From a virus: a stretch of 43,927 nt of DNA. The DNA lies in UHGV virus genome UHGV-1456322. The stretch is one strand, 5' to 3'. Each line of letters opens with the position of its first letter. Within the stretch, counting starts at the first letter, position 1. Below, piece after piece: positions 2,522 through 23,144 of the stretch. Below the pieces are notes generated by a model. That model made no database searches. It was not told where the DNA came from and saw nothing but the letters and a program-made list of their open reading frames with translations. The position numbers were made by a program, and so were the translations under genes.

Positions 2522-2535
2522 CTATGCCTCTGTTG

Positions 2536-4131: not shown

Positions 4132-4140
4132 GCTACCCCC

Positions 4141-4404
4141 TTACAGGCCCAGAGGATTGCTCTGCCCTGCTTGTCGCCGTTTCTTCTGCTCAGACGTAAT
4201 TGCATCTGCAGATGCAGAGGCAGCCCCTGCAGGGTCAATCTCAGCAATATTATCTGCGGCGCTATTAGCCTCTAAGGCAGCCTGTTGTTTAGCTGCGCTG
4301 GCCTGTTGCTCTGCCAAGCGCTGCTGCGCCTCTAATCCTGCGTTGTCAGTAAGGCCCAGCATATCCGTGGCCTTGCCTAACAGTCTACCTAAACCACCAC
4401 TCAT
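4141..4404 (-). CDS. hypothetical protein (87 aa), Ala/Gln-rich
   Basis: Minus ORF between RNAP-proximal gene and portal; overlaps upstream gene by 4 nt. Confidence 0.45.
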   Translation of the reverse strand: MSGGLGRLLGKATDMLGLTDNAGLEAQQRLAEQQASAAKQQAALEANSAADNIAEIDPAGAASASADAITSEQKKRRQAGQSNPLGL

Positions 4405-4841
4405 TCTGACCTCACTAAATGATAAGTTGTTTTGTACGTGTTACTGGACGTGCTTCGGCTAATGGTGATACGCCCAGCGCGCATGCACTTGGCTATTGCG
4501 TGCAGGCCCTGCATAATCACAGACACTGCCGCGCCGTTGTCCGGTTTCAATACGAAGAAGTCTGTATACAGCACAGGCTCTACGTAATGACAGTCCTCTA
4601 CAGCCTCTGGGTAGTAGCTGACAGCACCGACTAAGTCGCCTTTGGAGTCATAGACTCCTAGTATATACTGTTTACCCAGTATACTTCCCAACACCCTCCA
4701 GTAGTGCTGCTCTGGAGCCAGGCCCCGACTAATGCCATGGCCCAGTTCGTGCAGTTGCTTCACTGCGTCTGTAACGTCGTCAGATTTATACAGAACCTTG
4801 AGAGTGTAGTCGGAAGTTTTACTAGTGTGTTTTAACTTCAT
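4401..4841 (-). CDS. hypothetical protein (146 aa)
   Basis: Minus ORF; ATG immediately preceded by AGGAGTAGGA that is part of the repeated promoter-like motif. Confidence 0.5.
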   Translation of the reverse strand: MKLKHTSKTSDYTLKVLYKSDDVTDAVKQLHELGHGISRGLAPEQHYWRVLGSILGKQYILGVYDSKGDLVGAVSYYPEAVEDCHYVEPVLYTDFFVLKPDNGAAVSVIMQGLHAIAKCMRAGRITISRSTSSNTYKTTYHLVRSE

Positions 4842-4860
4842 TCCTACTCCTGTAACATTA
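4840..4860 (-). promoter_or_regulatory. candidate phage RNAP promoter (minus-strand TAATGTTACAGGAGTAGGA)
   Basis: Exact 16-mer CCTACTCCTGTAACAT (plus strand) shared with 26339-26354 and 36777-36792; located just downstream of RNAP gene. Confidence 0.45.
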
Positions 4861-4865
4861 AATTT

Positions 4866-7334
4866 TTAGCAGAAGAAGAACGGGGATTCTAGCACTTGCC
4901 GGATGTCCAAAGTGCCCACCTCTGGCATGTCCAGGTCCGTCAAGTCTGCCCCGGCTGCTGCCGCTGCCCGAGTAATATCGCCAAGCAGGTCATTCTCTTC
5001 ATATAGACGCACAAACTGCTCACGGATGTGCCTATGCATAGTGTCGACGTCAGCTGCGTGAGTAGCCAGCGAGTCGTGAATAGGCACAATGTCCAACCCC
5101 TCCGCAGCGCAGAGCACCATCATCAAGTGCGTACTGTCCAGGCTATGCACAAAGTTTGGGGCAATCCCGGAGGCTGCCTTGCGCTTGTTACAAGTTTTGA
5201 AGTCCCGGTTGTGTACCAGTACCGCTGACAGGTTCATGCAGTCAATACGTACACGCACTTCTTCACGCTGCGTGTAACGGTTCATTACGAGCCCGCCCAG
5301 CGGCGTATACCACTGCAGGTGCTGGCTTGCCGGTACGCGTCTAGCGAGATTCTGCAAGTACCCCATAACTGCCGCAGCAGCGGGGTTTGCCTCCTCTATA
5401 GCGGCGCGCATACGCGGTGCCAGGTAGCACGACAGGTTCCACAGACTGTTAGTATCGGTACCCTCGTATCCCTCAGCGCAAGCGCCTTCAAAGATGTAGT
5501 CGCTGCAGCTACGCACCGTGGCGCTGTAGAAGTAGGTCATACTTGGGTGCTTGGTCATGCTGCGGGTGATTTCGTTCTCTCTCCAGTACGTGCTCTGGAT
5601 AACGAAATCCTCCTTGTCCAGGTCCAGTATCACCTTCTCATCCGTGCGGCGCTTCACGTCCATGTACAGGTCCGCTTTCTTGTCGTTACCTTCCCAGTAC
5701 AGGTTCGTCAGACGACCGCCTACAGGGTCTCTCAGGAGCGCTGAGAGGTGCTGTCCACCTGAGTTTGTGGCGTCCATAGCAACCGGAGTTCTGGAGATGT
5801 ACTCTTCTGGGCACGGAGAATCCAGAGCAGCCACCAGGTCGAGCACTGCTGCCAAGAAACACCACGGTGAATCGGCCTGCTTAAAAGCGTCCGAATCAAA
5901 TGGATTCTCTGCAACTGAGCGGACAACTGCCATATTTTTATCCACCCAATCTGCGCGGTCTTCGAATAGGGTTTTGTCATAACCAAAGCAAGTGGCGACA
6001 TGCACTTTAAGCCAGAACAACCCTCTCTCTCCAAGAGGTTTACCTCTACCGAATTCCAGCAGAGCCTTCTGCAAATCAGAACCCTGCGGGTGCAACGAGG
6101 ACTTGAAGTACAGGCGGTAGCGCCAGTCCACACAAGTCGGGAAGTACAGGGCTTTCTCATCTTTGAATTCCTCTGCCATCTCCAACGTAGTCAGAAGGCT
6201 GCGTAGTTGCGACACACGCTTACGGTCAGCACTGTACCACAGGGACATACGCGTCTTCCACTCACCGAAGCGGTCCAGTTCTTCTTCGGTGTAGTTCTCT
6301 TTTGGTACACCATCCAAGTACCACTCAGGCTTCGGCTCCGGTATTGAGCGGGGCATACCTATCCCAATACCCAGGGCCCGTGCTTCTTGCACCAGTTCCA
6401 GTATGCGCTTATTAATACGGTATGGGGTTTCCTGTGCCTTATTAAGCGCCTTCTTGATGCCATCCGCGGACTTAAATGCTTCCGCCACTTCACGCAGCCT
6501 GGAGCGGTCGATGTGCGAGTTATGGTACGTACCGCGGTTGTCGATAGGAGTAAGGTACCCACCATCCCACATAGTGGTGTGCTGCACCGGGGGGACCAGC
6601 ATAGGCGGCTTCATCGTTACAGTGTCGGCAGATTCCACCAGTTTCTGGAAGGCCCCCATAACGTCATCAGCCGGGTAGAGCATGCTCAGGTTCCCGCTAC
6701 CTGTCTTCCACTGGAACAAGCCAGTCTCAAACACCGCGGCACACAGCAGACGCCCTACGGAGATGTTCTGGGCATTGGTCCAAGGCTCGTGCCCATAGTG
6801 CACATTCTCGGCACTGGCACGGAGCGTACGCAGGATGTGCGTAGGGGACTTCGTACGGCGCTCTGTGAGATACTCATATACTCGGTCCATGTACGCTGGG
6901 GCTACGTTGCGTAACTGCAGAGCCAGTAGCTCTGACTGCACGTTCCGGCCCAGTGCGGACATTACCGCCTGCGCAGTCTGGCGGCGACTAGCAGACTCGC
7001 CGGGGGCGACGCTAAACGCTTCAAACATTGTGCACAGGCTCAGTGTGGTCAGGACATCCAAGGGGACTAAGCGCAGGAACCGGCGGTACTTACCACCAAT
7101 GCCCGGGACTTTGACGTTTCGCATCTCGTCGATAGCGGCAGCAGCCACCTCATATGCCGAGGTGAGCATACGCTGCGTCATCGGCAGGTTCATAATCCCG
7201 CCGTTCTGCAATGCGTCCGTAATCAGCTTACGTGCCCGCTCGATTCCGCGAATCTTATAGGTCTCTTCGAGCTCCAGCTGGCGTTTCACCAGTGCTTCCT
7301 CTGGTACTACAACCGTATTCAGGGCGCTAATCAT
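4866..7334 (-). CDS. DNA-directed RNA polymerase, single-subunit T7-like
   Basis: 822 aa; palm motifs DATNSGGQH (motif A-like) and PIHDSL (motif C HDS); size typical of T7/phiKMV RNAPs. Confidence 0.95.
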   Translation of the reverse strand: MISALNTVVVPEEALVKRQLELEETYKIRGIERARKLITDALQNGGIMNLPMTQRMLTSAYEVAAAAIDEMRNVKVPGIGGKYRRFLRLVPLDVLTTLSLCTMFEAFSVAPGESASRRQTAQAVMSALGRNVQSELLALQLRNVAPAYMDRVYEYLTERRTKSPTHILRTLRASAENVHYGHEPWTNAQNISVGRLLCAAVFETGLFQWKTGSGNLSMLYPADDVMGAFQKLVESADTVTMKPPMLVPPVQHTTMWDGGYLTPIDNRGTYHNSHIDRSRLREVAEAFKSADGIKKALNKAQETPYRINKRILELVQEARALGIGIGMPRSIPEPKPEWYLDGVPKENYTEEELDRFGEWKTRMSLWYSADRKRVSQLRSLLTTLEMAEEFKDEKALYFPTCVDWRYRLYFKSSLHPQGSDLQKALLEFGRGKPLGERGLFWLKVHVATCFGYDKTLFEDRADWVDKNMAVVRSVAENPFDSDAFKQADSPWCFLAAVLDLVAALDSPCPEEYISRTPVAMDATNSGGQHLSALLRDPVGGRLTNLYWEGNDKKADLYMDVKRRTDEKVILDLDKEDFVIQSTYWRENEITRSMTKHPSMTYFYSATVRSCSDYIFEGACAEGYEGTDTNSLWNLSCYLAPRMRAAIEEANPAAAAVMGYLQNLARRVPASQHLQWYTPLGGLVMNRYTQREEVRVRIDCMNLSAVLVHNRDFKTCNKRKAASGIAPNFVHSLDSTHLMMVLCAAEGLDIVPIHDSLATHAADVDTMHRHIREQFVRLYEENDLLGDITRAAAAAGADLTDLDMPEVGTLDIRQVLESPFFFC

Positions 7335-7475
7335 AGGCGCTTAGTCTCCTTGGTTATGTCCGGTACTTCTAACTACTGATTGCGACTTACCCAGAGATTG
7401 TACATCTCCAGGTAGTCTTTAGCGGCGCGTTCGTCTCCCCGCTCTACTGCTTTCTACCACACCCCGTGGCACCAC

Positions 7476-7937
7476 TCACTTGGCGTCAATGCACTTACCT
7501 CTGTGTTGCTCGTATAGTTCTGAGTACTTGTCGGACTTGGCAATGTCTTGTTCCAGCTTATCCTTGTTCCCGGCGCGCAGTCTGTACTTGAGCCGGTTCC
7601 CCAGGCAGTATCCGTAGAACTGCTCTTTCGTCATACTGCGTGCAATCACCTCAATTGCCTCCAGGCCCGGGAAGAACTGATAGTGTTTGGGTGAATTTAC
7701 TGCGTCTGGAGCTTTGGGCGTACTTTCCTGAATGCTTGATATGCTGACTACCTCAAAGTGGCAAGGGTCCCACAGATGGCCGTTACAACCATCAAGGATT
7801 ACGCCCCCATCAAGCACCGCTGTAATGGTGAACGAGTCACCATAAGCCACACGTAGCCCCATGCAGAACTCTGCCCAATCTAGCGTGCGGTATTGTGCCC
7901 AACGCCTCACCACATCCCCAACCTTGACTTTGCTCAT
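7476..7937 (-). CDS. hypothetical protein with DUF3310-like C-terminal region
   Basis: 153 aa; C-terminal SPKHYQ...IEVI...LGNRLKYRLR pattern resembles DUF3310 as recalled; not verified. Confidence 0.5.
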   Translation of the reverse strand: MSKVKVGDVVRRWAQYRTLDWAEFCMGLRVAYGDSFTITAVLDGGVILDGCNGHLWDPCHFEVVSISSIQESTPKAPDAVNSPKHYQFFPGLEAIEVIARSMTKEQFYGYCLGNRLKYRLRAGNKDKLEQDIAKSDKYSELYEQHRGKCIDAK

Positions 7938-8356
7938 TTAATAGTCTCCCGTGCTTTGCGTCGTGCCCGGGCCTTGCGGGCCTTGAGCTTCTGTACCTGT
8001 GCCAATTCTTCCGGCGACTTGTGCGTATAGTATAGCATATCCGTGGGTTCACGGTCTAAGTAATCGGCGACCCTGCGTAGAGATTCAGCAATAGCCCCAG
8101 AAGATTGCATGCTACCAACAATCCAGCGCCCAGCGGCAGATGCCACTTTGCCTTCCCCTCCATTGCACGAGCGATGAAGAGCACCCCGAATACGCCCAGT
8201 AATATGATCGTGGTCAACGACAATAGAATCACCAGTTACCCCCTTGATTGTGAAGTCCAAAGGTTTGCCACAAAGGGGGCATATGCCCCCCTGGTCTTTG
8301 GCAAGCTTAATAGCAACAGAGCGAATCTGTGCGCGGGTTATTTTACGCAGTGCCAT
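7934..8356 (-). CDS. recombination endonuclease VII-like (Holliday junction resolvase)
   Basis: 140 aa; CPLCGK ... VVDHDHITGRIRGALHRSCNGGEG matches Endo VII zinc/His-Me finger signature (T4 gp49 family). Confidence 0.8.
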   Translation of the reverse strand: MALRKITRAQIRSVAIKLAKDQGGICPLCGKPLDFTIKGVTGDSIVVDHDHITGRIRGALHRSCNGGEGKVASAAGRWIVGSMQSSGAIAESLRRVADYLDREPTDMLYYTHKSPEELAQVQKLKARKARARRKARETIK

Positions 8357-8745
8357 GTAATCCCTCTTAACATACGATACACTGCACTGTGGGCCATACC
8401 TAGACGTCTAGCTATATCGTTGCTACCCCATTCCCGGTCCCCGGGAATGTGTATTTGCCGCAGATAACGCACCGTACCTTCGTTCAAACGTGAGCGACCG
8501 CTGCCGGAGCCCTTTGCTGCTTTGCTTTTGTGGGTCCCTCCCTGCAAGTGCTCGGGGTTAATGCAGCGAGGATTTCCACAGGTGTGCTGTACTACCTCAG
8601 GCCACTCCCCTGTGTGCTCATAGTGTGCTTTCCTGTGTGCGGTTGTAGATTGGCGTTTACCATCAATAAGAACCCACGCGGATAGGAACCCAGTATTTGG
8701 CCACCCCTTTCGCCCGTGGTCTATACAAGGTGTGCTCACTCCCAT
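8338..8745 (-). CDS. HNH endonuclease (paralog 1)
   Basis: 135 aa; CIDHG ... HTCGNPRCINPEHL HNH motif; paralogous to 13145-13579 and 16355-16795. Confidence 0.85.
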   Translation of the reverse strand: MGVSTPCIDHGRKGWPNTGFLSAWVLIDGKRQSTTAHRKAHYEHTGEWPEVVQHTCGNPRCINPEHLQGGTHKSKAAKGSGSGRSRLNEGTVRYLRQIHIPGDREWGSNDIARRLGMAHSAVYRMLRGITWHCVK

Positions 8746-8939
8746 ACCTGAATCTCCCCCACTACATCCAGCATAGCATTGTCGTGAATGAGAGAATCCA
8801 AATGCTCAACCGTTCTTCGATGTGTTTTGGGTGCTCGTTCACGCAGCGCATCCAGAATAGTTTCAAGTTCATCGTGTTTCCCCTCGTAGTATAACTCAAT
8901 CGCCCGCAGGCTCATCTCCTTCGCAGACATCTTCGCCAT
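8736..8939 (-). CDS. hypothetical protein (67 aa)
   Basis: Track ORF 8736..9008 trimmed to in-frame ATG with AGGAG RBS; overlaps exonuclease 3-prime end. Confidence 0.35.
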   Translation of the reverse strand: MAKMSAKEMSLRAIELYYEGKHDELETILDALRERAPKTHRRTVEHLDSLIHDNAMLDVVGEIQVWE

Positions 8940-9864
8940 TGTCTGGGTGCTCCTGTATCCACTGTATGTGCTGTTTATGGTACTCGTGCAGAGAATGCAC
9001 CCAGTCACGCAGACTGGGAGTAGTCAACAGTGACATCAGATACAGGTACGCTGAATCTGATTGGGAGCGCCTCAGCCACAGGCATTCTGCCTCTGCGAGT
9101 ACGTCTTGGTTGTTTCGAGCATAGGCCGCTACAACGAATTCTGCGGCGTCCTGCTCTGAGGTAATAGGGTTGATAGCATCAAAGGCCGTTCGCTTCCCAC
9201 AGAGCTTTCCATCAAGCAATGTGATGCCTTTGACGTTATCTGCGTCATCTCCTGCTAGCATTTGCCACCAGAAGAACTTAGTGCCATGCGCTCGTACCGG
9301 CATAGCCTGGGTATCATCCCACTTAATCCAGCCGAATGGGTTATCCAAGGCAGGCCACACGGTTCCGGTAGGGATATCGAACCGAGCCATAGGGCTGAGC
9401 CAAGAATCCTTGTCCTGTGACATCAGGATTCCCCGGCCCCCGAAGCTGTACGAATCCATTACAAATAGGTCGTCGGCCTCAAAGTAGTCACTGCTTACCA
9501 CTTGTATGCCATGCTCAGAATACTGGTCCGGGTTCTCAATCAGGTGCCGCTTCAACGGTGCCTTGAGTGGCAGCTCCTGACGCTTATTGCGGTTCCCTTG
9601 GTACGGCTTAGCCGTAGGCAGGTGCCAGCGCAGGCACTTAGCACACCCCGTAGGCGTCAGATACGCCACTGCTTCTGAGCAGCCGACCAGGAACATGTCC
9701 TCAAGCACCAGCTGATAGAAGCGGCGTATCGCGGTATCCAAACGTTTCACTGTAGCAGCAGATTTATAAACTGTGAAATCCGCGTCGTACAGCAGAATCT
9801 TCCCAGAGTTCTGCGGAGCTAACTGCTCCCCGAGCTGGGACAAGTCAACCCCGTTGATAATCAT
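8896..9864 (-). CDS. 5-prime to 3-prime exonuclease (T7 gp6-like, FEN family)
   Basis: 322 aa; acidic metal-binding motifs YFEADD and AGDDADN typical of FEN/5-3 exonucleases. Confidence 0.85.
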   Translation of the reverse strand: MIINGVDLSQLGEQLAPQNSGKILLYDADFTVYKSAATVKRLDTAIRRFYQLVLEDMFLVGCSEAVAYLTPTGCAKCLRWHLPTAKPYQGNRNKRQELPLKAPLKRHLIENPDQYSEHGIQVVSSDYFEADDLFVMDSYSFGGRGILMSQDKDSWLSPMARFDIPTGTVWPALDNPFGWIKWDDTQAMPVRAHGTKFFWWQMLAGDDADNVKGITLLDGKLCGKRTAFDAINPITSEQDAAEFVVAAYARNNQDVLAEAECLWLRRSQSDSAYLYLMSLLTTPSLRDWVHSLHEYHKQHIQWIQEHPDNGEDVCEGDEPAGD

Positions 9865-9866
9865 CA

Positions 9867-10025
9867 GACCCCCGTAACCTTCTTGGTCAACTTACGCGCC
9901 CAGGATTCCCAGGCGGTCAGCGCCTGACTGTTTTCTACCTTCTCAAATGCCCAGCACAGGATAGCTACAAGCACTAGCGGGGCTACTAACAGGAAGTAAA
10001 ATGATTTTGCAAAGAAGTTACGCAT
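9867..10025 (-). CDS. small membrane protein (52 aa), below ORF-track cutoff
   Basis: Hand-translated: MRNFFAKSFYFLLVAPLVLVAILCWAFEKVENSQALTAWESWARKLTKKVTGV; one TM helix; stop overlaps exonuclease ATG (ATGA-type coupling). Confidence 0.4.
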
Positions 10026-10028
10026 TCT

Positions 10029-10190
10029 CTACACCTTTAAGTGGTCAGTAAAAGCATGGATTGCACGGCCCAGCATAGCCACGCCCTTAGAGCCTCCGGC
10101 TACACTGAGCGCCAGCGCCATTAGCATCAAGCTGATTGCAAGTAGTACCAGTGCTGGGACTGAAATTATGTAGGATATAAATTTACGCAT
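10029..10190 (-). CDS. small membrane protein (53 aa), below ORF-track cutoff
   Basis: Hand-translated: MRKFISYIISVPALVLLAISLMLMALALSVAGGSKGVAMLGRAIHAFTDHLKV; ATG overlaps TAA of upstream gene (TAATG). Confidence 0.4.
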   Translation of the reverse strand: MRKFISYIISVPALVLLAISLMLMALALSVAGGSKGVAMLGRAIHAFTDHLKV

Positions 10191-10564
10191 TATATACCCT
10201 CCAGTTCAGATAGCACCAACACGGTGCCAAGCATGTCCCCGATTACTTCCGTGGTACGCAGGCTCTGGTCTACGTCGTAGATGCAGGAACCAATCTCCGC
10301 CAGCCCGATGCTTAGGGTACCCACAATGCGGATAAGCACTAGGTCATCACCCCGTAACTTATCGGCATGTGCCGCCAGGTCATTGTGCTCCTTGAAGGCG
10401 GTAGCAGCCAACTCCAGGTCCATGCCGTACAGGGCCGCCAGCTTGTCCAGAGCATCGTACACAGCGCCGAGCTGGTCACCGTTGTCGAAACCTTGAACGG
10501 CGCTACAGTTCACGTAACCTACAGCCAGAACCAGTTTCTTGTATGCGTCTAGTACTTTGTCCAT
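10190..10564 (-). CDS. hypothetical protein (124 aa)
   Basis: Minus ORF in tightly packed gene chain; no motif recognised. Confidence 0.5.
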   Translation of the reverse strand: MDKVLDAYKKLVLAVGYVNCSAVQGFDNGDQLGAVYDALDKLAALYGMDLELAATAFKEHNDLAAHADKLRGDDLVLIRIVGTLSIGLAEIGSCIYDVDQSLRTTEVIGDMLGTVLVLSELEGI

Positions 10565-10842
10565 TAGTCAAATCCTTTCAATTTGTGTTTTGAAATGAAA
10601 TTGTGGGCTTTGGTCTCAGTGGCCGTAGCCTCTGCACCCAGGGCGTATGCACGGCGTCGGGACTTGGCGCACTGGCGAGTCAAGTGATAGCGGTGTGCGC
10701 TAATCTCGGCACCCAGAAGGCTTGCCCTGTGTGCGTGAGAATTAGCTGCCCAGTGCCAGTCGTTTGCTCGCTTCTGCAAACGCTGTGCACGCAGAAGCAG
10801 AAACACAGCGTACTGTTCTTTGGCCCATGTGATTATGCGCAT
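10564..10842 (-). CDS. hypothetical protein (92 aa), basic
   Basis: GGAGG RBS 6 nt upstream of ATG; stop of upstream gene abuts start. Confidence 0.5.
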   Translation of the reverse strand: MRIITWAKEQYAVFLLLRAQRLQKRANDWHWAANSHAHRASLLGAEISAHRYHLTRQCAKSRRRAYALGAEATATETKAHNFISKHKLKGFD

Positions 10843-11097
10843 TTATACCTCCAGGAAGTTAGCTACCTCACCACGCTTAGCGCGCAGGTTATCAGCATGG
10901 CAAGCGCACGCCTCGGCTAACTCTTTGCTATGCTTGGATGCCTCTACGCGCGCCTCGGATTGAGCGGCCAGACGCACTGCGTCGTCTGCGAATTTAACTG
11001 ACAACTGCTCGTTAAACTGCGCTTTGGCATCGGCGCGTTTAGCTTCTGCTGTGTAGGCCGCGCTCAGGAGTTTGATGAGAATCTTGATGATGTTCAT
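10843..11097 (-). CDS. hypothetical protein (84 aa)
   Basis: AGAGGAAG RBS; preceded by GC-rich palindrome GGCCCCTAGGAGGGGCC (11111-11127). Confidence 0.5.
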   Translation of the reverse strand: MNIIKILIKLLSAAYTAEAKRADAKAQFNEQLSVKFADDAVRLAAQSEARVEASKHSKELAEACACHADNLRAKRGEVANFLEV

Positions 11098-12171: not shown

Positions 12172-13152
12172 TTATTTAGTACGACCAACCCAACGACCAT
12201 CGTCGTCAAGCAGCATCGGAATTAACTGCGGGCAACCCTCGGTGATTACCAGCACACCCAGGATTGGTTTCTTGCGGGTGAGTCTGCCGTAAGCAAAGGC
12301 CATGCTCTTACGGTCAATCAGACACCCAGCATACGCACCAAAGTACAAAGCTGTTGAGCTAGCTGCATATTGCACCTCAAAGCGACCATGTTCGTGACCA
12401 AGGACAAGGCTGGTTCTTTCGTGGCTAGCGTTGAGCATGAAGTCACCCGACACTTGATGCTGGAATCTAACCGGGCCAAGTGGGGTATTGAGTACCCACG
12501 CGTCAGCCCAAGACCACGCCGGGGCACCATGTTCAGGGAAAAGTATATCTCGGTACTTCTTGATGAATTGCACTGGTAGCCCGTGAGCTTTCGCCCTGCG
12601 GTAAACCAGACTGCCGTGATTGGAATCGCAAACCAATAGGTTCGGGAACAGTTCATGTAGCTCCTCCAGTACGAGCTTAGCTTTCTCCAGCTCCACCCCG
12701 GCGCTATCCAGGTTCGGGTTACTTTCGTGGAATGATATAGCGTGGCCGTCCGTCTCGTCGCCTACCTGTACAACCATGTCCGGACAGTAGGCGTCTCGCA
12801 CAGATTCTAAGAAGGCCATAGCATCTACGTGCGTATAGGGGGCATGCAAATCCCCAACTACGAGAATACGGTGGCACACTTCCGGCACGAAGGTTTTGCC
12901 GATGTCATCAGTGGGACTGGGCTGTATGAGCTTTAGTGCCTCCTTCATGTGTGATATTGCCTTGCCCTTGCTCCCAGCGTGGTCTAGGAATATGCTGCGC
13001 CAGTACTTCACCATCTGTCGATACACCACCGGCTCGTCCAGTCCCGCCAGCTTATTATAGGCGGCAGCAGCATCCACGTTAGAGCTGTGCTTGCTCAAGA
13101 TATCTACGTGTTGCTCTTTGGTGAATAGCTTTATTGTGTTTAACTTAGGCAT
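12172..13152 (-). CDS. calcineurin-like metallophosphoesterase
   Basis: 326 aa; motifs VVGDLHAPY (D-x-H), VGDETDGH (GDxxD), DSNHGS, GHEH consistent with metallophosphatase fold. Confidence 0.75.
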   Translation of the reverse strand: MPKLNTIKLFTKEQHVDILSKHSSNVDAAAAYNKLAGLDEPVVYRQMVKYWRSIFLDHAGSKGKAISHMKEALKLIQPSPTDDIGKTFVPEVCHRILVVGDLHAPYTHVDAMAFLESVRDAYCPDMVVQVGDETDGHAISFHESNPNLDSAGVELEKAKLVLEELHELFPNLLVCDSNHGSLVYRRAKAHGLPVQFIKKYRDILFPEHGAPAWSWADAWVLNTPLGPVRFQHQVSGDFMLNASHERTSLVLGHEHGRFEVQYAASSTALYFGAYAGCLIDRKSMAFAYGRLTRKKPILGVLVITEGCPQLIPMLLDDDGRWVGRTK

Positions 13153-13579
13153 TCCAGCTCCTGTTACTTATTACGTCACTAATTACATGTACACCTACAC
13201 CGTACTTATTAGCAAAGTGTTGCCGCATACCTTTCTTGTATGGGATATAGTTATCCCTGATATCCTGCACAGCATCCCAAGTTAACTGCGCTTTTGGGTT
13301 CCTATCCCCACGCACATCTGGGTTCCTTCCGCGCTCTGCGCGGTCCCGCATATTATCCATATGCGTTCCCAATACTAAGTGCTTAGGGTTAATGCACCTG
13401 GGGTTATCGCAGGTATGTCTAACAGACAGGCCAGCCAGCGCCCTTATATCCAGCCCGTTATGCTCAGCACACACCACCCGATGCAGCAGCTCCAATCGCC
13501 TGGTCGGCTTATACCATGCCCGGCGGTATCCGTTCTTGTTAAGGCATTTGTTATACCCGTGGTCAATACACATCGACAT
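13145..13579 (-). CDS. HNH endonuclease (paralog 2)
   Basis: 144 aa; CIDHG ... HTCDNPRCINPKHL motif. Confidence 0.85.
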   Translation of the reverse strand: MSMCIDHGYNKCLNKNGYRRAWYKPTRRLELLHRVVCAEHNGLDIRALAGLSVRHTCDNPRCINPKHLVLGTHMDNMRDRAERGRNPDVRGDRNPKAQLTWDAVQDIRDNYIPYKKGMRQHFANKYGVGVHVISDVISNRSWNA

Positions 13580-13740: not shown

Positions 13741-13962
13741 CTATTCCACGATAAGCTTGTACTCCCCCGGGAAGAAGGTAACACCATCCCCCGGTCTACT
13801 TACTACTAGTCCAGGATAACTTAGTTCTATCTCCCCAGTAACCGGGTCGAAGAACATAACCGTGTGCCTCGTACCCGGGGCGAAGTATGCTGCATACCGC
13901 GGGTCTATCGGCTCAGGCCCCAGGTCCATCAACTCCACAACACTGCCAGACTTTATACTCAT
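13741..13962 (-). CDS. hypothetical protein (73 aa)
   Basis: Start overlaps DNA polymerase stop (ATGA). Confidence 0.45.
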   Translation of the reverse strand: MSIKSGSVVELMDLGPEPIDPRYAAYFAPGTRHTVMFFDPVTGEIELSYPGLVVSRPGDGVTFFPGEYKLIVE

Positions 13963-16373
13963 TCTACCTTCTCCTTACTGTACATACTCGTACCCATCTC
14001 AGCCTCTGCTGGGAACGGGACCTCACCAATGATGCCGTAGTTAGGCCAGAGCTGGTGAATACGCTTAGGTGCATCCTCCATGCACTGCTTAACCAGCAGG
14101 CTCGCCTCACGTCCAACCTCCGGGTTGGCGCTGTCCAGATACAACGCATCGTGCACGTTCGTAATCAGGCACACCTGATTGTCGAACCAGTCACGGGCCA
14201 GGAGTGCACGCAGAACCATACCGGCAGCTACCGCCATCAGGAAGAATGCTTCCCCCTGGCACCAGTAGTTAGCCATCTCTGTTTCCTTGTAGTCCATTAC
14301 CTTCTGCTTACGCTGCCCAGGCACAACCTCTTTCCACTGCTCCTTCTGGCGGAAGCTATAGCGGGCACCTGCTGGGCTAGTCCACGTCCCGATGCGGTAG
14401 ACTCGGTAGCTGCCATCGTCAGCCTGCTCGCGGTACATGCGCCCGGCTGCCCCGGTGCGCTCTACTTCTTCCTTGATAACAGCGCGGAAGCCAATTGTTT
14501 GCGGGAACAGCGCAGCCTCGTTGTCCAAGAAAGCCTGTGCGAATTCCACCGTACATCCAGTAGCAAACGCAATCCCCTTAGCCGTAGCGCCATACTGGGC
14601 TGCGAAGCTAGGAGCCTTAATACCTGTACGCATTGCCTTCCAAAGCGGATGCAGCTCGTGCTTCTTGTTGTGGCAGCGCTCATACACTTCTTCATACGGC
14701 AGTTCCTCGCGGAAAGCTAGGCGGTAACAGTGCATATCCGTGCCGCCCTGCAGCAGCCCCAGTAGTTTGGTGTCCCCCGTATGCACACAGGACATAACCA
14801 CTTCCAGCGCCGAGTAGTCAACCTCAGTGATGCGTCCGTTATCCCCGAATCGGCTGGTGAATACCTGCTTCACCTTGGATTTAGCTACCCCATCCCCGTC
14901 TTCATCCGGTCGGGGTAGGTTCTGCAGGTTCGGGTTAGAGCTACTCAGGCGCCCGGTTACGGTGGCGCATGTATTCAGTCGGTGGTGTATGATGCCAGAA
15001 CCATCAGGACGCTCAGGGATTACGTACTGTAACATACCCTTCCGCTCTTTGACTTTACCCTCTGCGTCCAGAACTTCACGCAAGTAGTAAGTTCCAGTGT
15101 CCTTCTCCAGCGCCGCCAGCTCATTCACCAACTTACAGAACTCGAACCCTTGGCGGGCTAGCGCCTCCATTGCGTCAGTGCTGGTGCTGTATACTGGCGT
15201 ACCGTCCTGCATGGTGCGCGCCTGTCGGAACTCTCCACGCTCTGCATACTTCTCCCGGATAACTTCCGGCAGCTCCTGTATGTTCACTAGGCCCGGGCAG
15301 AAGTAAAGGTCATCTTCCCACCTTAGCTTCTCCTCCTCGGTGTCTAGGCGGAATACTTTGGGTAGCCCCTTGTTCTTACCCGCACGATATGTCACTACAC
15401 GCCACCATCCGCCTTCCGTTTGAAGTTCTTGCATGTGCGTGTCGTGTACAGGTATATAGGTGTGCGCACCCTCTCCGTCCTCGTACTTATAGAAGTCGGC
15501 CTTGACGTACTGCGGCGGGTCATATGGCACCTTCTTGCGGTACTTGATAGGCCCGCCGTACACCAGTGCTGACATATGGAAGTCCGACCCGAAGTTGAAA
15601 TCTAGCGTCTCTGGTAAGTCCTTCGGGATGTACTGCTGCAGTTCCTGCTTAATCTCACGGATGCGCTGCTCCTGCTCCTCCTGGTTCTTGCGTGCAATTG
15701 GCATATTAACGAACAGGCCGAACCATTCGCAGTACGCCCAAGCCAGCAAGGCATCCATACGCTCCCACACGTACTGCATCTGATTGCGCTGGGCGAACGT
15801 AGCGCACTGGCCGTAGAAGCACAGGGCCGTGTTCGGGATGTCCCCGTTAACCAGGTAGTCATGCAGCAGCATCGGGTCAATCTGGGAAGTTAGCACACCC
15901 TGCTCCCACAGAAGCTTAACCCCGTCTACTTTGTGCGTACCACCGTACTTAGGAGCCGTCTCGTCCAGCGACGGATACATGCTCTGAAAGTCCGAGGCGA
16001 TGTATTCCCCATGCATTGTGCAGAACACCCTGCCGCCGCGCTTGAGGAAGGCCTCAAACTGCTGCCGCTGGTACGTGAGAAACCAAGAAATCTCATAGGC
16101 TGCGTTGTGCGCAACAATAAGCCAGCAATCCTCTGGGATATGAAACCACCGGCAGCCTTCTGCTGCACTGTTTCCCGCCAAGAAATCAGCTCTTGAATTG
16201 AAGCGCACCGATTGAGTCGCGCCAACAGTGGTAGTACCGTCAGCCTGTGTCGTGTCGATACGCCATGCGGACTCAACAACATAGTTGTCAGGGCAGTATG
16301 GGCTTGCTTTAGAGCCGTAATATTCATGGTTTTGAACCTCTAAATCTATGTGCATTATACTGGTTGTTGACAA
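13959..16373 (-). CDS. DNA polymerase (family A, T7 gp5-like) with 3-5 exonuclease domain
   Basis: 804 aa; N-terminal HIDLE exo motif; pol motifs TGRLSSSNPNLQNLP, KAPSFAAQYG, VHDAL. Confidence 0.95.
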   Translation of the reverse strand: MSTTSIMHIDLEVQNHEYYGSKASPYCPDNYVVESAWRIDTTQADGTTTVGATQSVRFNSRADFLAGNSAAEGCRWFHIPEDCWLIVAHNAAYEISWFLTYQRQQFEAFLKRGGRVFCTMHGEYIASDFQSMYPSLDETAPKYGGTHKVDGVKLLWEQGVLTSQIDPMLLHDYLVNGDIPNTALCFYGQCATFAQRNQMQYVWERMDALLAWAYCEWFGLFVNMPIARKNQEEQEQRIREIKQELQQYIPKDLPETLDFNFGSDFHMSALVYGGPIKYRKKVPYDPPQYVKADFYKYEDGEGAHTYIPVHDTHMQELQTEGGWWRVVTYRAGKNKGLPKVFRLDTEEEKLRWEDDLYFCPGLVNIQELPEVIREKYAERGEFRQARTMQDGTPVYSTSTDAMEALARQGFEFCKLVNELAALEKDTGTYYLREVLDAEGKVKERKGMLQYVIPERPDGSGIIHHRLNTCATVTGRLSSSNPNLQNLPRPDEDGDGVAKSKVKQVFTSRFGDNGRITEVDYSALEVVMSCVHTGDTKLLGLLQGGTDMHCYRLAFREELPYEEVYERCHNKKHELHPLWKAMRTGIKAPSFAAQYGATAKGIAFATGCTVEFAQAFLDNEAALFPQTIGFRAVIKEEVERTGAAGRMYREQADDGSYRVYRIGTWTSPAGARYSFRQKEQWKEVVPGQRKQKVMDYKETEMANYWCQGEAFFLMAVAAGMVLRALLARDWFDNQVCLITNVHDALYLDSANPEVGREASLLVKQCMEDAPKRIHQLWPNYGIIGEVPFPAEAEMGTSMYSKEKVE

Positions 16374-16795
16374 GGGTACTCTCCTCTTAGCACTTTGTAT
16401 ATGACGTTAGTGTCTACGCCGTACTCGCGGGCCAGATGGGTAACGCCATAAATCCTCGGCGTATGCTTGGCACAGATATCTTCACAGTCTTTAGGAGTTA
16501 GGCGTTGGCGGCTAGGCACCCGCTTAGCACTACGGCCGCGCTCTGCTCGGTCCTTGTTGTTATCTGCTAGGGTTCCAGGTATTAGGTGCTCTGGGTTGAT
16601 GCACCGTGGGTTGTCGCAAGTGTGCCTGACAACTACTCCATCTAGAGCTTTAAGCGGCACCCCTAACTTCTCCGCCAGCACCAGCCTGTGCAGGTGTACG
16701 CAACGACTGCGAACTCCGGGTTTAGCTACCAAGGCGTAGCCTTCTGGGGATAGGCTGCGCGAACGTCCGTGGTCGATACACTCACTCATTTCCAT
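16355..16795 (-). CDS. HNH endonuclease (paralog 3)
   Basis: 146 aa; CIDHG ... HTCDNPRCINPEHL; sits between helicase and DNA polymerase, 3-prime end overlaps polymerase start. Confidence 0.85.
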   Translation of the reverse strand: MEMSECIDHGRSRSLSPEGYALVAKPGVRSRCVHLHRLVLAEKLGVPLKALDGVVVRHTCDNPRCINPEHLIPGTLADNNKDRAERGRSAKRVPSRQRLTPKDCEDICAKHTPRIYGVTHLAREYGVDTNVIYKVLRGEYPCQQPV

Positions 16796-18913: not shown

Positions 18914-19082
18914 CGGTAGCGTTACCCTCTGTGAGTAAAATTCGCTCCACTTTAACCACCGTAGTTAAATTGGTTAAATCATCTTTTATAGTGGCGCGAC
19001 CATCCTTTACGTTAATTAAGGTATAGGTTCTGTCCGTGAACAGAAAGTTCTCTGGGCTATTTTCTAGAGCTTTTACTTTCAT
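18894..19082 (-). CDS. hypothetical protein (62 aa)
   Basis: Minus ORF overlapping primase start by 20 nt. Confidence 0.35.
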   Translation of the reverse strand: MKVKALENSPENFLFTDRTYTLINVKDGRATIKDDLTNLTTVVKVERILLTEGNATDGPALA

Positions 19083-19540
19083 TATGCTTTCTCCTTACGT
19101 TTGATATCCATAGCCATGCGGCGCAGGTCGTGCGCCAACTGCAGGGCTGAATCAGGGTCGATGTTAATCCCAATCTCCATCTGTGCTCGAGTACTTCCCT
19201 TGCGAGGGATTACTCCGATGTACATTAATCCTTCCCCTTCACCGTTGTCCTTATCAAGGACTAGGCGCTGGTCATTTCCAGAATCGCGCTTGGAGTTCAC
19301 GTAGGTTACACTGGCTGGAACCGGCGGCAGCTCCTCGTCCTCGGGCTCTTGGTACAGTTCGAAGTTTGGCGCGTACCACGGACGGGGGTCCTCCTTATCT
19401 CGCACCCCATCCAACTGTAACCAGTAACCACCTGCGCCAACATCCGTTACAATGTAATAATTCTTAACGCCTTGAATGAGCCAGAACGTTTTGCTCTCAA
19501 CTGTACGCACAACTTTATCACCAACTTTAAAATTAGGCAT
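19082..19540 (-). CDS. hypothetical protein (152 aa)
   Basis: GGAGGG RBS; stop of upstream gene adjacent. Confidence 0.5.
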   Translation of the reverse strand: MPNFKVGDKVVRTVESKTFWLIQGVKNYYIVTDVGAGGYWLQLDGVRDKEDPRPWYAPNFELYQEPEDEELPPVPASVTYVNSKRDSGNDQRLVLDKDNGEGEGLMYIGVIPRKGSTRAQMEIGINIDPDSALQLAHDLRRMAMDIKRKEKA

Positions 19541-19542
19541 AA

Positions 19543-20589
19543 TTAACCCTCCACAATATTATCGTATCCACCCCAGTCTTCTACGACTCGGGTGCCTAAT
19601 TCAATCAGTTCTTCTTTAAAGCCGTAATCGGAGAACACCATTATGTACTCCGCCGCCTTCTCTGGATTCTCCTGCACCCAGCTAACCAGTTGTTGTTTAG
19701 AAAGCTGCGACACTACACGGAACGCTGCCAGCAATTGCGGGTCCTCGTCTGGCGGCATATCCCATGGCTGCCGTAAACTGAGCGTCGATGCTGAGAGCCA
19801 TTGGTCCGGCTCTACTACCTTCGGGTCCCGCTCAATCGGAAGGTGCGAGAACGTACCATCTTGCAGTACCCGCTCAAGCACTTTCCCCAGGATGTTCAGG
19901 TCCAGCACCTCATCCGGAGTGTGCTCGTGCATGTACCCTACACCGACGTTGGTGCACTCAGGGATGATGCCGACGAACTCGGCTGAGTCAGTATACACAC
20001 CCTTTTGTAAGTGCTGCTCCGTGCGTCCTAGGCGCTCTGCCAGAGTCTTGGCAAAGGTATCAGAGCAGCAGCGCATGTACCGCTGGTGCGTAATGATACC
20101 ATCTCCGCGGCGGTCAAAGCTAATCATCGCCTTGACACCAGTCCAAAATCCAGTGTCATCCTTGACCGATGCAGCGCTGCCTTCGCAGCCAACCTCCTCA
20201 TCCACGAAGAAGCAGTAGCGTCCGTGCACACCCCGCCGCAGCATCTCCAGCATCAGGTAGACACCGGCACCGCAGTCCGCCCCCAAGCAGTCAGCTTGTT
20301 GCGGATTCTTTACGAACAGCACGCCCTTGTTAGTGCAACCGACGTCCGGTGCAGCGCTGGTTGGGCGGGCCACCGTATCGAGATGAGACGTAAACGCTAC
20401 ATCACTTTGCTCTGAGTCCCCCACCAGCACGAAGTAGTTCCCGTGCTTATCCTTTACGTAGTGCATACCACTACCCAGCGCCTGCATAAGCAGCGGATCG
20501 AACCACTTAGTGCTTGCCCAGCTAGGCCGGTGCGTTCGCAGTATCTGCAAGAGCAGCTGCATATCAATCCCATGCGGATTCAAGAACAT
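19543..20589 (-). CDS. zinc metallopeptidase-like protein (clan MH, M20/M28-like)
   Basis: 348 aa; ordered motifs FTSHLDTV (H-x-D), GADCGAG (Asp), FFVDEEVG (E-E-x-G), YMHEHT (His) consistent with co-catalytic zinc exopeptidase fold; from memory, unverified. Confidence 0.55.
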   Translation of the reverse strand: MFLNPHGIDMQLLLQILRTHRPSWASTKWFDPLLMQALGSGMHYVKDKHGNYFVLVGDSEQSDVAFTSHLDTVARPTSAAPDVGCTNKGVLFVKNPQQADCLGADCGAGVYLMLEMLRRGVHGRYCFFVDEEVGCEGSAASVKDDTGFWTGVKAMISFDRRGDGIITHQRYMRCCSDTFAKTLAERLGRTEQHLQKGVYTDSAEFVGIIPECTNVGVGYMHEHTPDEVLDLNILGKVLERVLQDGTFSHLPIERDPKVVEPDQWLSASTLSLRQPWDMPPDEDPQLLAAFRVVSQLSKQQLVSWVQENPEKAAEYIMVFSDYGFKEELIELGTRVVEDWGGYDNIVEG

Positions 20590-22265
20590 TAAGCTGCCTC
20601 CTCTGCTTCTTCTTCATCTTCATCGTTTCCCAGGTACTTCTCTCCCAAGCAATCAGCTGCATGCTCAGTGAGAATTAACCCGTGCACTGGGTGTTCTTCT
20701 GCGTGTTCAATAAGCACTTGCCGGTCCTGTGCAAACACCAGTTCCTCTTGGTCGTGCACTACACCCTCTACTTCGCAGCGCTCTATGTCCTCGTCGTATA
20801 CATAGGCGTCGTGGTAATCAGACCAGGTGCAGCTCCAGCGATTATGCAGACCATCACGCCCAACTACGTACACAAAATCCCCTTCTTCTACGCAGCCGTC
20901 GCAGACCATATCACCATCTGCGGTCTCCTGCATGTCATCTACAGAGTAGCGACATTCACAGCAGCAGCACCCAGCAGACTCAGTGCCTACGTAGATGTAT
21001 CCTTCTGAGTCTTGTGCCTCGTACTCATAAGCATCACGGATTACAAAGGCATCATCCCCATACTCATCTACGCCGCACTGGCTGCTATCTAGGTATGGCA
21101 TCAGCACTGCGCCGTTGTATGTTGGGTGCGGTATTCGCGCCAGCATTACCCCTTCGAGACACTCAATGTTTTTGGTGTACCCATGCCCCCGCAGGATTGC
21201 ATCCGCAGCGTCGCCGTAAGCGCGGACGTACTCGTTAGTTTCTGTGTTAACGATTGCCCGTGCCTGCACTTCGAAGTCATCCCCGAACAGTTCCCCGGTG
21301 TACTGGATGAACAGGCGCAGCCCGTTGTCCGGCAGCCCGTGGCTGGTAGTAGCATACACCCGCACCGGGCTATGCTCAAATGAGTATCCACTCATGCAGC
21401 TACCCGGGCCATTCTCGTAGGAGTCGTACCATTCCTGCTCGGTCTTGCACAGGTACGTTGTAGGCTCTACGTTCATAGCCTTGAGGTCTTCGATAGCATC
21501 GCGGAAGTCTACGCCATTGCCGTAGTAGTTAGCGAGCCACTTACCTACGCGCATCTCCACACAACGGTACTCGGTAACTGCGGCGAAGTCCTTGTGCATC
21601 CGCGGCTGCCCCAGCATCACGATAGGCTCACCGTTGCGGAAACCAAAGCCCAATGGCACGGCGAATCTAGATACTATGAATCCGTGCAACTTCATGAGCA
21701 GCGCAGCTAAGTTGCCATCGCGGGCGTGGCGGCCGTAATCGTAGCCAGTGCATAAGCGGCGCTGCTGCTCTTCTGGTGCAAGCATGATGCGCTCAAATAA
21801 CTGCACGGCCTGCTTGTGCACCTTGTAACCTGTGAATTCTTCGACGCAAGCAACTACGCGCTCAACCACTACATCCTCGCCCTCATAGAAGTCGCGGCGG
21901 CGTTCCCAGAACTTGCTGTCTATGGTGATTCGCACCGGTTCAAAGAGTTCGCAGAAAGTTCCGGACCGGTACAGGTCCACCTTTTGCAACGGGCCGAGCG
22001 TCATCGTTGATTCGCGATACTCTGGGTGCAGTGCCCCGCCTATAGTCACCTCTAAGCCTGGAGTGTGCGCACTGACAGTGCGGAGACCCATAAGCACCTG
22101 CAGCGGACCCTCAGTGTGGGGATGGTCCTCCCCTTGCATTTGCAAGTCCTGGAACGGGGTCCAGTAATCACCGCTGGAATACATTGATTCTTTAATCGGC
22201 AGTGCGTTTGCACCTTCCGGTAATACGATTTTCCATTCGATAGGTGCTGTGTTAGTCTCTTGCAT
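20589..22265 (-). CDS. large uncharacterised early protein (~558 aa) with C-terminal Cys cluster and acidic tail
   Basis: Track ORF 20589..22646 trimmed to ATG at 22263-22265 (AGGGG RBS) because the 5-prime extension overlaps the 114-aa gene; contains GCCCCECR ... CDGC and terminal DEDEEEAEEAA. Confidence 0.5.
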   Translation of the reverse strand: MQETNTAPIEWKIVLPEGANALPIKESMYSSGDYWTPFQDLQMQGEDHPHTEGPLQVLMGLRTVSAHTPGLEVTIGGALHPEYRESTMTLGPLQKVDLYRSGTFCELFEPVRITIDSKFWERRRDFYEGEDVVVERVVACVEEFTGYKVHKQAVQLFERIMLAPEEQQRRLCTGYDYGRHARDGNLAALLMKLHGFIVSRFAVPLGFGFRNGEPIVMLGQPRMHKDFAAVTEYRCVEMRVGKWLANYYGNGVDFRDAIEDLKAMNVEPTTYLCKTEQEWYDSYENGPGSCMSGYSFEHSPVRVYATTSHGLPDNGLRLFIQYTGELFGDDFEVQARAIVNTETNEYVRAYGDAADAILRGHGYTKNIECLEGVMLARIPHPTYNGAVLMPYLDSSQCGVDEYGDDAFVIRDAYEYEAQDSEGYIYVGTESAGCCCCECRYSVDDMQETADGDMVCDGCVEEGDFVYVVGRDGLHNRWSCTWSDYHDAYVYDEDIERCEVEGVVHDQEELVFAQDRQVLIEHAEEHPVHGLILTEHAADCLGEKYLGNDEDEEEAEEAA

Positions 22266-22314
22266 TTTAGTTTGCCCCTGAATAGGTTCTTTGAGTTCAT
22301 CGCCAACCACTAAG

Positions 22315-22659
22315 TCAGCGTGCGTACCATGCAGCGATCTGCGCTTGCTTATAATATGCCCGTACTGCCGCCCTAAATCTTGTATATGCTCCACGATACC
22401 CGTACCGTAGCAGTGCTGCAACCACATCGAACTGAATGTGCTCTTGCAACTGCCGCGCGGCAGATTCTGTATACTCGCGATAGGTTGTGAGCACCACCGT
22501 AGAGTCCTGCCTACGAACACGGAGGAGTCTGCGCTCGACCGGTATGATTTGCTTGAGTTCATTAGGAACCTCTTTGAATGTTCCCCAAGGGCACCCGCAC
22601 TTGCCCTGCGTTTCCAGCAGCTTCCACATGAAAACAGCAGCTTCATCTACCGTCATCAT
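22315..22659 (-). CDS. hypothetical protein (114 aa)
   Basis: Start overlaps stop of HNH-AP2 gene; N-terminus MMTVDEAA resembles that of the upstream endonuclease. Confidence 0.5.
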   Translation of the reverse strand: MMTVDEAAVFMWKLLETQGKCGCPWGTFKEVPNELKQIIPVERRLLRVRRQDSTVVLTTYREYTESAARQLQEHIQFDVVAALLRYGYRGAYTRFRAAVRAYYKQAQIAAWYAR

Positions 22660-23144
22660 GTGAGCCTCCCAGTAGGAGTGGTTGGGTGCAGCCTAGCTTT
22701 AGCCGCTAAGTATGCTTCGCGGGCTTCATTTTCTGTGGGGTACACCCCAAGATACATCTGCTTCCCGTTTGCTGCTATGCGGGCCATGTATCCTCCTCGA
22801 AATGGGTAATACCCCTTCGCCTCTCGGTTGTGGTTATTGATTAGGGCAGTGGTCGCGCGGAGGTTTTCAGGACGATTATCATCCCGCTGCCCGTTGATAT
22901 GGTCAACTACTGGTGGAAAGTACCCGTTGGTAAGGGCGAAAACCACCCTATGAGCTTTTAAGTCCCGGCCCCGAAGCATTCCGTGGTAGTAGCCCCCGTT
23001 ACTCTTGCTTGTGAACGCTTCCGCTCCAACCGGTGTGCGTGCTCTAGGTGCTTTCTTCCAACGCAAACCAGTGGTCGAGGTGGCGTCGACGTAGAGATAT
23101 TCCTGAATCAAGCACAGCAGCGCTGTTTCGTCTACTGTGAGCAT
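22656..23144 (-). CDS. HNH homing endonuclease with AP2-type DNA-binding domain
   Basis: 162 aa; VVDHINGQRDDNRPENLR (HNH_3-like) followed by YLGVYPTENEAREAY (AP2-like); AAGGA RBS. Confidence 0.8.
   Translation of the reverse strand: MLTVDETALLCLIQEYLYVDATSTTGLRWKKAPRARTPVGAEAFTSKSNGGYYHGMLRGRDLKAHRVVFALTNGYFPPVVDHINGQRDDNRPENLRATTALINNHNREAKGYYPFRGGYMARIAANGKQMYLGVYPTENEAREAYLAAKARLHPTTPTGRLT

Follow-up and report, generated by a model that had tools for sequence, protein, structure and literature searches.

That a GNAT acyltransferase can be paired with an M20-type deacylase is well established, an example being ArgA and ArgE in arginine synthesis. These enzymes, along with N-acyl amino acid synthesis and its M20 aminoacylases and with peptide-tagging ligase/peptidase pairs, resemble the locus described here, in which a putative transferase accompanies an MH-clan hydrolase. 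The locus lies in the virus genome UHGV-1456322, a stretch of 43,927 nucleotides (here called the window), which is a complete Drulisvirus (KP34-like) genome of a Klebsiella podophage, and it comprises a large gene on the minus strand at 20589..22265 (the target) followed by a metallopeptidase gene (the partner). The metabolic pairs differ from this locus in that they are cellular biosynthetic enzymes with known substrates and not translationally coupled cassettes confined to phages, and no sequence relationship of the target or its partner to acyltransferase/deacylase pairs was detected.

The fold class closest to the predicted core of the target is the GNAT or acyl coenzyme A (acyl-CoA) N-acyltransferase superfamily, which includes FemA/FemX, ATE1, L/F-transferase, MYST, and N-myristoyltransferase and whose fold runs in the order beta2-beta3-beta4-alpha3-beta5-alpha4-beta6. 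The MYST enzymes are eukaryotic, carry a C2HC zinc finger N-terminal to the core, and bind acetyl-CoA through the canonical motif A. They share no sequence similarity with the target, and the resemblance is probably convergent.

The target gene has long been cataloged as a hypothetical core gene. Its KP34 orthologue, KP34p10, is entered among the conserved genes of the genus as a “hypothetical protein,” KP34p11 is entered as a “putative peptidase,” and PhiM1-like phages of Pectobacterium hold the same pair as PhiM1_09 and PhiM1_10. The original prediction, made from the window alone, had described a large, uncharacterized protein, which agrees with the existing annotation and with matches in PHROGs to the unknown-function families 6980 and 13313 only, but it overlooked the two most informative facts, namely, the pairing with a metallopeptidase and the GNAT-like core. 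It had also placed the gene in the host-takeover region, but the gene is no variable accessory gene of such a region; it is a core gene that borders the replication module (peptidase, primase, helicase, and DNA polymerase). What is new here is a corrected gene model, a family that lacks Pfam coverage together with its signature residues, the cassette with an MH-clan peptidase, the predicted GNAT-like fold, and the Ala-Ala terminus.

The genes and signals of the cassette are as follows.

20589..22265, minus strand: target gene, KP34 gp10 orthologue, PHROG 6980; open reading frame (ORF) of 558 amino acids plus stop

19543..20589, minus strand: partner gene, KP34 gp11 orthologue; single-domain M28/M20-type (MH-clan) metallopeptidase of 348 amino acids

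20597..20603, minus strand: GAGGAGG ribosome-binding site of the peptidase gene, inside the last codons of the target

The target and the peptidase constitute a two-gene cassette, and the target is not an isolated gene, because the pairing is near-universal over the collected loci and no other neighboring gene is common to all of them. These loci came from annotated phages, one metagenomic contig, a Vreelandella prophage, and 38 IMG/VR contigs, each searched with both protein profiles. A peptidase homologue lies downstream of the target on the same strand at 43 of the 44 nonredundant loci with downstream DNA, and in 42 of those 43 the two genes overlap or are separated by a gap within 45 nucleotides; they are usually translationally coupled. 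In the window, the target stop and the peptidase start overlap as TAATG (20587..20591), and the last four codons of the target (GAG GAG GCA GCT, encoding EEAA) supply the ribosome-binding site of the peptidase gene. Loci with the cassette are found in Drulisvirus, Maculvirus, and Phimunavirus, in a 121-kb Bradyrhizobium phage and the Vreelandella prophage, and on the IMG/VR contigs, and their other neighbors vary, including primase, helicase, and polymerase genes, integrases (at many loci), DUF932, dUTPase, and ThyX. One locus (L027) has an unannotated gene for 231 amino acids (7126..7821) inserted between target and peptidase. No fused target-peptidase protein was present among 270 family members.

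The pair also occurs in multiple copies. On the 128-kb Methylobacterium indicum plasmid pVL1_2 (L048), three target paralogues and two peptidase paralogues lie side by side within 1684..10929, in the order target, target, peptidase, small ORF, target, peptidase. A truncated gene annotated as “glutamate--tRNA ligase family protein” is found about 3 kb further downstream (13767..14699). Loci in bacterial genomes were sought with the narrow pattern [NK]GP[NSD]SCMS, and the single match that it returned undercounts prophage copies.

The partner appears, from its sequence, to be an active dinuclear metallopeptidase with intact metal ligands. It scores 24.1 bits against the Pfam model Peptidase_M28 (cutoff, 21.3) and aligns with PepT-like M20 enzymes (structure 3gb0) over their catalytic domain, with the lid domain skipped. 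The expected MH-clan ligands (H-x-D, D, E-E, D/E, and H) are all present as H69, D71, D105, E131, E132, D159, and H223, and each is at least 95% conserved across 42 homologues. The partner peptidases also have family-specific invariant motifs (FDR.G...ItHQ, G..TD, and ipECTN..vGY...H) as well as a C-terminal extension, about 100 amino acids long, that is poorly conserved, and they may represent a distinct phage subfamily of MH-clan enzymes.

The target belongs to a large, widespread phage family, for which there is neither a Pfam model nor a solved relative. Over 400 close homologues are present in the databases, and an exhaustive HMMER search over 1.84 billion cluster representatives (clustered at 50% identity) recovered 284 clusters at an E value of ≤1e-3 and 50 at ≤1e-10. 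Most members have 400 to 650 amino acids, and the match spans residues from about 230 to 475 of the target. Searches of phage genomes with tblastn placed the family in phages of Klebsiella, Escherichia, Shigella, Cronobacter, Pectobacterium, and Pseudomonas, as well as in Vibrio phages (VP93 group) and the 121-kb Bradyrhizobium phage, and it is also found in temperate phages and prophages. Scans of the target with Pfam (E ≤ 1), NCBIfam, and PADLOC gave no family match, in keeping with the earlier statement that no polymerase, ligase, kinase, or nucleotidyltransferase was recognizable. Likewise, 138 diverse family members contained no Pfam domain (E ≤ 0.01 or 0.001) and no informative fusion, and searches of PDB sequences, whether queried with the target sequence by itself or with profiles of the full family or of the core, returned only weak LIM/RING zinc-finger matches or noise. 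Homology to a characterized housekeeping enzyme was thus found in none of the Pfam, NCBIfam, PADLOC, and PDB sequence searches.

When 64, 74, and 116 members representing the family were aligned, Ser289, Cys290, Arg336, and Asp393 proved invariant at an overall identity of about 20 to 30%, and Y283, G286, M291, Y304, Y350, G351, P390, and Y391 proved near-invariant. The family motifs read Y..GP.SCM, ARA.VN...K.YVR.YGD, MPYLDG, and C..CG.....DD..........VC..C. Invariant polar residues at about 25% identity form a pattern typical of an active site, which the target may therefore contain. The layout of the protein, read from the alignments and the structure models, is as follows.

21936..22265, minus strand: N-terminal region of about 110 amino acids, lineage specific; low model confidence at residues 41 to 51 and 60 to 106

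21666..21935, minus strand: helical region, residues 111 to 200; model helices at 103 to 198, with partly conserved W..RE..R and H.S...P motifs

21006..21665, minus strand: conserved alpha/beta core, residues 201 to 420, with a predicted divergent GNAT-like fold

21393..21410, minus strand: GPGSCM motif, residues 286 to 291; S289 and C290 invariant, G286 and M291 near-invariant

21087..21101, minus strand: MPYLD motif, residues 389 to 393; D393 invariant, P390 and Y391 near-invariant

20892..20969, minus strand: putative C4 zinc ribbon, residues 433 to 458 (C433-x2-C436 ... C455-x2-C458), from the family alignment

20661..20891, minus strand: predicted beta-hairpin repeat region, residues 459 to 535; short strands modeled at high confidence

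20592..20624, minus strand: acidic tail DEDEEEAEEAA, residues 548 to 558, with an Ala-Ala end

A full-length AlphaFold2 model built with 64 sequences had a mean predicted local distance difference test score (pLDDT) of 80.5, with most of residues 270 to 550 above 90, the beta-hairpin repeat region likewise above 90, and residues 41 to 51 and 60 to 106 below 50. A model of the core (residues 186 to 420; 116 sequences) reached a pLDDT of 95.4 and a predicted template modeling score of 0.87. Because the list of structural matches is uniform, the core model argues for a GNAT-like architecture, a very divergent one. It is not assignable to a known GNAT family because scores were low, motif A is missing, and no profile matched. 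Foldseek searches of BFVD returned uncharacterized phage proteins only, plus local zinc-ribbon matches (“metallothionein,” “LIM,” and “amidoligase”), and these named matches are taken to reflect the common C-terminal module and not the core. At the junction equivalent to motif A, the family consensus is P-G-[RK]-[YW]-L, in which only G241 is near-invariant; when the sequence is read against the predicted secondary structure, this glycine would sit at the strand-to-helix transition where GNATs bind pyrophosphate. Similarly, Y283-x-x-G286 would close the helix equivalent to motif B, with the invariant Ser-Cys pair directly after it. Two more specific assignments were set aside: an ATE1/Bpt-type N-degron transferase had support no better than that for a generic GNAT, and a Cys-His protease or transglutaminase lacked a conserved His.

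Invariant polar residues, a GNAT-like core, and coupling to an active-looking hydrolase together suggest an enzyme that works with the peptidase, and acyl or aminoacyl transfer is proposed because GNAT-like folds and M20/M28 hydrolases typically share the chemistry of making and hydrolyzing amides. We tentatively favor, at rather less than an even chance, a Cys290-assisted acyl- or aminoacyltransferase-like protein; the coupled peptidase would act on its product or substrate, and its variable termini would give specificity. The target and the metallopeptidase would form a conserved two-gene phage module, with the target as its larger subunit, and Ser289-Cys290, Arg336, Asp393, and several tyrosines would build a polar active or ligand-binding site. 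It might acylate or aminoacylate an amine, possibly via a Cys290 thioester, with the acceptor being the N terminus or a side chain of a host or phage protein or else a small-molecule amine. The peptidase, as a dinuclear-zinc exopeptidase or deacylase, could trim or reverse the modification or prepare the substrate, while the choice of target would rest with the variable N terminus and the C-terminal repeats, and the Ala-Ala end, as an ssrA-like ClpXP degron, might limit the lifetime of the protein. We infer the physical complex of target and peptidase, the catalysis, the donor and acceptor, and the degron role from these features.

Several observations weigh against this proposal. Among the 138 members scanned, no GNAT-clan Pfam model (Acetyltransf_*, FemAB, ATE_C, Leu_Phe_trans, etc.) was found, and the CoA-binding motif A (Q/R-x-x-G-x-G/A, in the beta4-alpha3 pyrophosphate loop) is absent. 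The clustering of the invariant residues into one site is assumed. Adjacency is no proof of a physical or biochemical partnership, and one locus (L013; 5905..9986) has no peptidase within 3 kb; there, a family member of 380 amino acids is followed by genes for a Hydrolase_2 cell wall hydrolase and a Toprim primase. Finally, the original prediction was right that an acidic tail is present, but its EEAA end in the window arises at least in part because the same codons hold the ribosome-binding site of the next gene, and AA ends are unusually common in neighboring ORFs too (5.7%).

The missing cofactor motif and the absence of a Pfam match would also be expected if the protein were a noncatalytic adaptor or regulator of the peptidase, whose zinc ribbon, hairpins, and degenerate GNAT-like domain serve for binding only. 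Such a protein might deliver a host protein to the peptidase or might keep the peptidase inactive, for example by placing its acidic Ala-Ala tail in the active site, until the regulator is broken down in turn. Strict, translationally coupled pairing favors stoichiometric coproduction, a constant core flanked by variable N- and C-terminal regions fits as well, and so does the enrichment of AA termini on the target. However, an invariant Ser-Cys pair, Arg, and Asp with near-invariant Tyr over 284 clusters fit a catalytic or small-ligand site better than a protein-protein interface, and a target-peptidase fusion is not seen among the family members, so we regard an adaptor as possible but somewhat unlikely. 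To return to a transferase-like enzyme, its broadest form is an undescribed, widespread phage enzyme system. In it, a new Cys-dependent branch of the GNAT-like fold would covalently acylate or aminoacylate proteins or metabolites of the host early in infection, with the product passed to the peptidase for processing and the timing set by the Ala-Ala degron; this fuller scheme we hold to be possible but somewhat unlikely.

The regions flanking the core are less uniform. The N-terminal region of about 110 amino acids is conserved only in close relatives, and within Drulisvirus it is more variable than the core. Toward the C terminus (AGCCCCECR...MVCDGC...WSCTW...ERCEV), the Cys-rich segment that had been proposed to bind metal is retained in part: C433, C436, C455, and C458 are each kept in at least 90% of the family (64 and 116 representatives) as two CxxC knuckles about 18 residues apart, a pattern that suggests a family-wide C4 zinc ribbon, but the remaining Cys residues of the “CCCC” run are lineage specific. 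PDB sequence matches to the ribbon were weak and confined to LIM/RING (E values of at least 0.018). The zinc-binding domain of ClpX has an equal CxxC-18-CxxC spacing, but homology to it was rejected, as no profile matched. The hairpin region gave a subthreshold match to choline-binding repeats (E = 0.31). Tails are acidic in most family lineages, and the target as a whole is strongly acidic (16% D+E versus 9% K+R).

A zinc ribbon and an acidic tail would be compatible with a replication accessory that uses both to bind DNA or the replisome, in the manner of T7 gp2.5, T4 gp32, or a primase or helicase loader, and it would be in keeping with such a role that the gene directly precedes those for the peptidase, primase, helicase, and DNA polymerase and that it lies near dUTPase and ThyX in the prophage. 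Tails of T7 gp2.5 and of the Escherichia coli single-stranded DNA-binding protein have an aromatic final residue, whereas the target ends in Ala, and the oligonucleotide/oligosaccharide-binding fold that accompanies an acidic tail in phage proteins of the T7 gp2.5/T4 gp32 type was not found in the target. The overall acidity of the protein also speaks against this role, the obligate peptidase partner is left unexplained, and at many loci the pair adjoins integrases and not replication genes. A replication accessory is thus improbable.

The same acidic composition and tail might instead indicate a DNA-mimic anti-restriction protein of the Ocr/ArdA type, and the GenBank record of phage KPPK108.1 (P0088) does name the target homologue a “putative DNA mimic protein.” No paper supporting this label was found in the literature, and literature searches on Drulisvirus/KP34, the PHROG identifiers, M28 with antidefense, and transcriptomes gave only genome descriptions in which the gene is “hypothetical.” The target matches neither Ocr, ArdA, nor antidefense models (Pfam and PADLOC). 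Furthermore, Ocr and ArdA are small and all acidic, whereas the target is a multidomain protein of 558 amino acids with an enzyme-like core and a zinc ribbon, and its EEAA end is in part an artifact of the ribosome-binding site. DNA mimicry is therefore very improbable. The original prediction had singled out the gene as a candidate for a host-takeover or antidefense function, and no link between gene and defense was found in the analysis, including the PADLOC scan of the target. Both a replisome role and DNA mimicry fit the position or the charge of the protein but not its fold, its invariant residues, or the peptidase link.

An Ala-Ala C terminus recurs in the family. It is present in 44 of 126 representatives (35%), and 61 of the 126 end in Ala; in about half of the AA-ending members, the preceding residue is L, I, V, or A, and many read LAA, VAA, or IAA. 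At loci outside Drulisvirus, 10 of 30 targets end in AA compared with 14 of 245 neighboring ORFs of at least 100 amino acids, an enrichment with an odds ratio of 8.3 (P = 4e-5). In several lineages whose targets end in LALAA or AIAA, the downstream gene has a ribosome-binding site of its own in the spacer. It is a reasonable hypothesis, from these sequences, that the Ala-Ala end is an ssrA-like ClpXP degron: ssrA-tagged and native AA-ended ClpXP substrates have x-Ala-Ala-COOH, as do 35% of the family, and the ssrA tag itself ends in YALAA. Unlike ssrA substrates, many family members lack AA, and the AA of the window overlaps the ribosome-binding site of the next gene. Among loci L003 to L047, AA is the commonest ending among the neighboring ORFs of at least 100 amino acids, at a frequency well above the expectation from amino acid composition, and it is found on 6 of 43 partner peptidases. 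These neighbor ends may reflect a sequence constraint from translational coupling or general degron usage.

Drulisvirus phages are among the most widely used therapy candidates against Klebsiella pneumoniae, and the pair belongs to the core genes of the genus. The same cassette is found in phages of Vibrio, Pectobacterium, Bradyrhizobium, and the Halomonas group and in many uncultured phages, such that solving its function once would annotate hundreds of genomes. The target, which is well defined and amenable to experiment, appears to place a very divergent GNAT-like domain in an architecture and a partnership that are both new. Should its Cys-containing core prove catalytic, the target would represent a new enzyme family and might reveal a new kind of host modification directed by phages; if the whole enzyme system holds, it would be a new route of host takeover or counterdefense common to virulent and temperate phages of Proteobacteria. 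In practical terms, the length should be corrected to 558 amino acids, the “DNA mimic” label is unsupported, and the protein is best studied together with the peptidase.

The gene model itself required correction in the databases. The window matches over 200 Klebsiella phages of Drulisvirus, a genus of podophages in the Slopekvirinae (Autographiviridae), at 83 to 99% nucleotide identity over the target region, and essentially all of its genes are on the minus strand. The target is a real gene and not a chance ORF, given its close homologues and the 284 representative clusters. Its mechanical ORF is open upstream to 22646 (685 amino acids), public entries range from 557 to 660 amino acids, with most at 610 to 660 (P0002 to P0120), and PHROG 6980, which matches the target at an E value of 0, carries a 98-residue N-terminal extension. 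The extension overlaps the upstream gene, listed next.

22315..22659, minus strand: upstream gene for 114 amino acids, PHROG 6167; only its frame is under selection where the extension overlaps

Variable sites were counted by codon position in an alignment of 12 Drulisvirus genomes. Over 22318..22646, counts at positions 1, 2, and 3 are 36, 20, and 73 in the frame of the upstream gene; read in the extended target frame, the same sites give 20, 73, and 36, with the peak at position 2. Over 21905..22265, the target frame gives 35, 37, and 75, highest at the third position, and the interval between (22266..22314) behaves as a hypervariable intergenic spacer, with 34 of 49 sites variable. These patterns establish ATG 22265 as the true start of a protein of 558 amino acids (MQETNTAP to DEDEEEAEEAA) under purifying selection in frame, and the longer database forms, along with the PHROG 6980 profile, are overextensions into the upstream gene in another frame. 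An AGGGG Shine-Dalgarno-like element (22275..22279, minus strand) lies 9 nucleotides 5' of the ATG. The coordinates 20589 to 22265 and the length of about 558 amino acids given in the original prediction are thus right, and the true gene is not much shorter.

The disagreement among database lengths and the extended PHROG profile could be read as signs of an annotation artifact, with a true gene that is much shorter, much longer, or not expressed. Against this stand the codon-position patterns, the relatives at 44 to 48% identity, which have 550 to 555 amino acids and whose alignment begins at residues 19 to 21, and the confidence of the full-length model (mean pLDDT of 80.5; residues 270 to 550 mostly above 90), and we give such an artifact almost no credence. 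A scan for promoters and terminators around the target gave counts not above those for shuffled sequence.

Downstream of the peptidase, a gene for 152 amino acids (19082..19540, minus strand), the KP34p12 orthologue, is conserved in Drulisvirus-like loci and not in the wider cassette; it matches only positions 206 to 356 of the 455-position profile of PHROG 4317, a family of unknown function. Upstream, an HNH_3 homing endonuclease gene (22656..23144, minus strand; 162 amino acids) has a stop that overlaps the start of the gene for 114 amino acids. In a comparison of annotation only, NTUH-K2044-K1-1 has no annotated gene opposite the HNH_3 position (L001; 2906..3878). Two more HNH-like ORFs in the window, at 16355..16795 and 13145..13579, cluster together.

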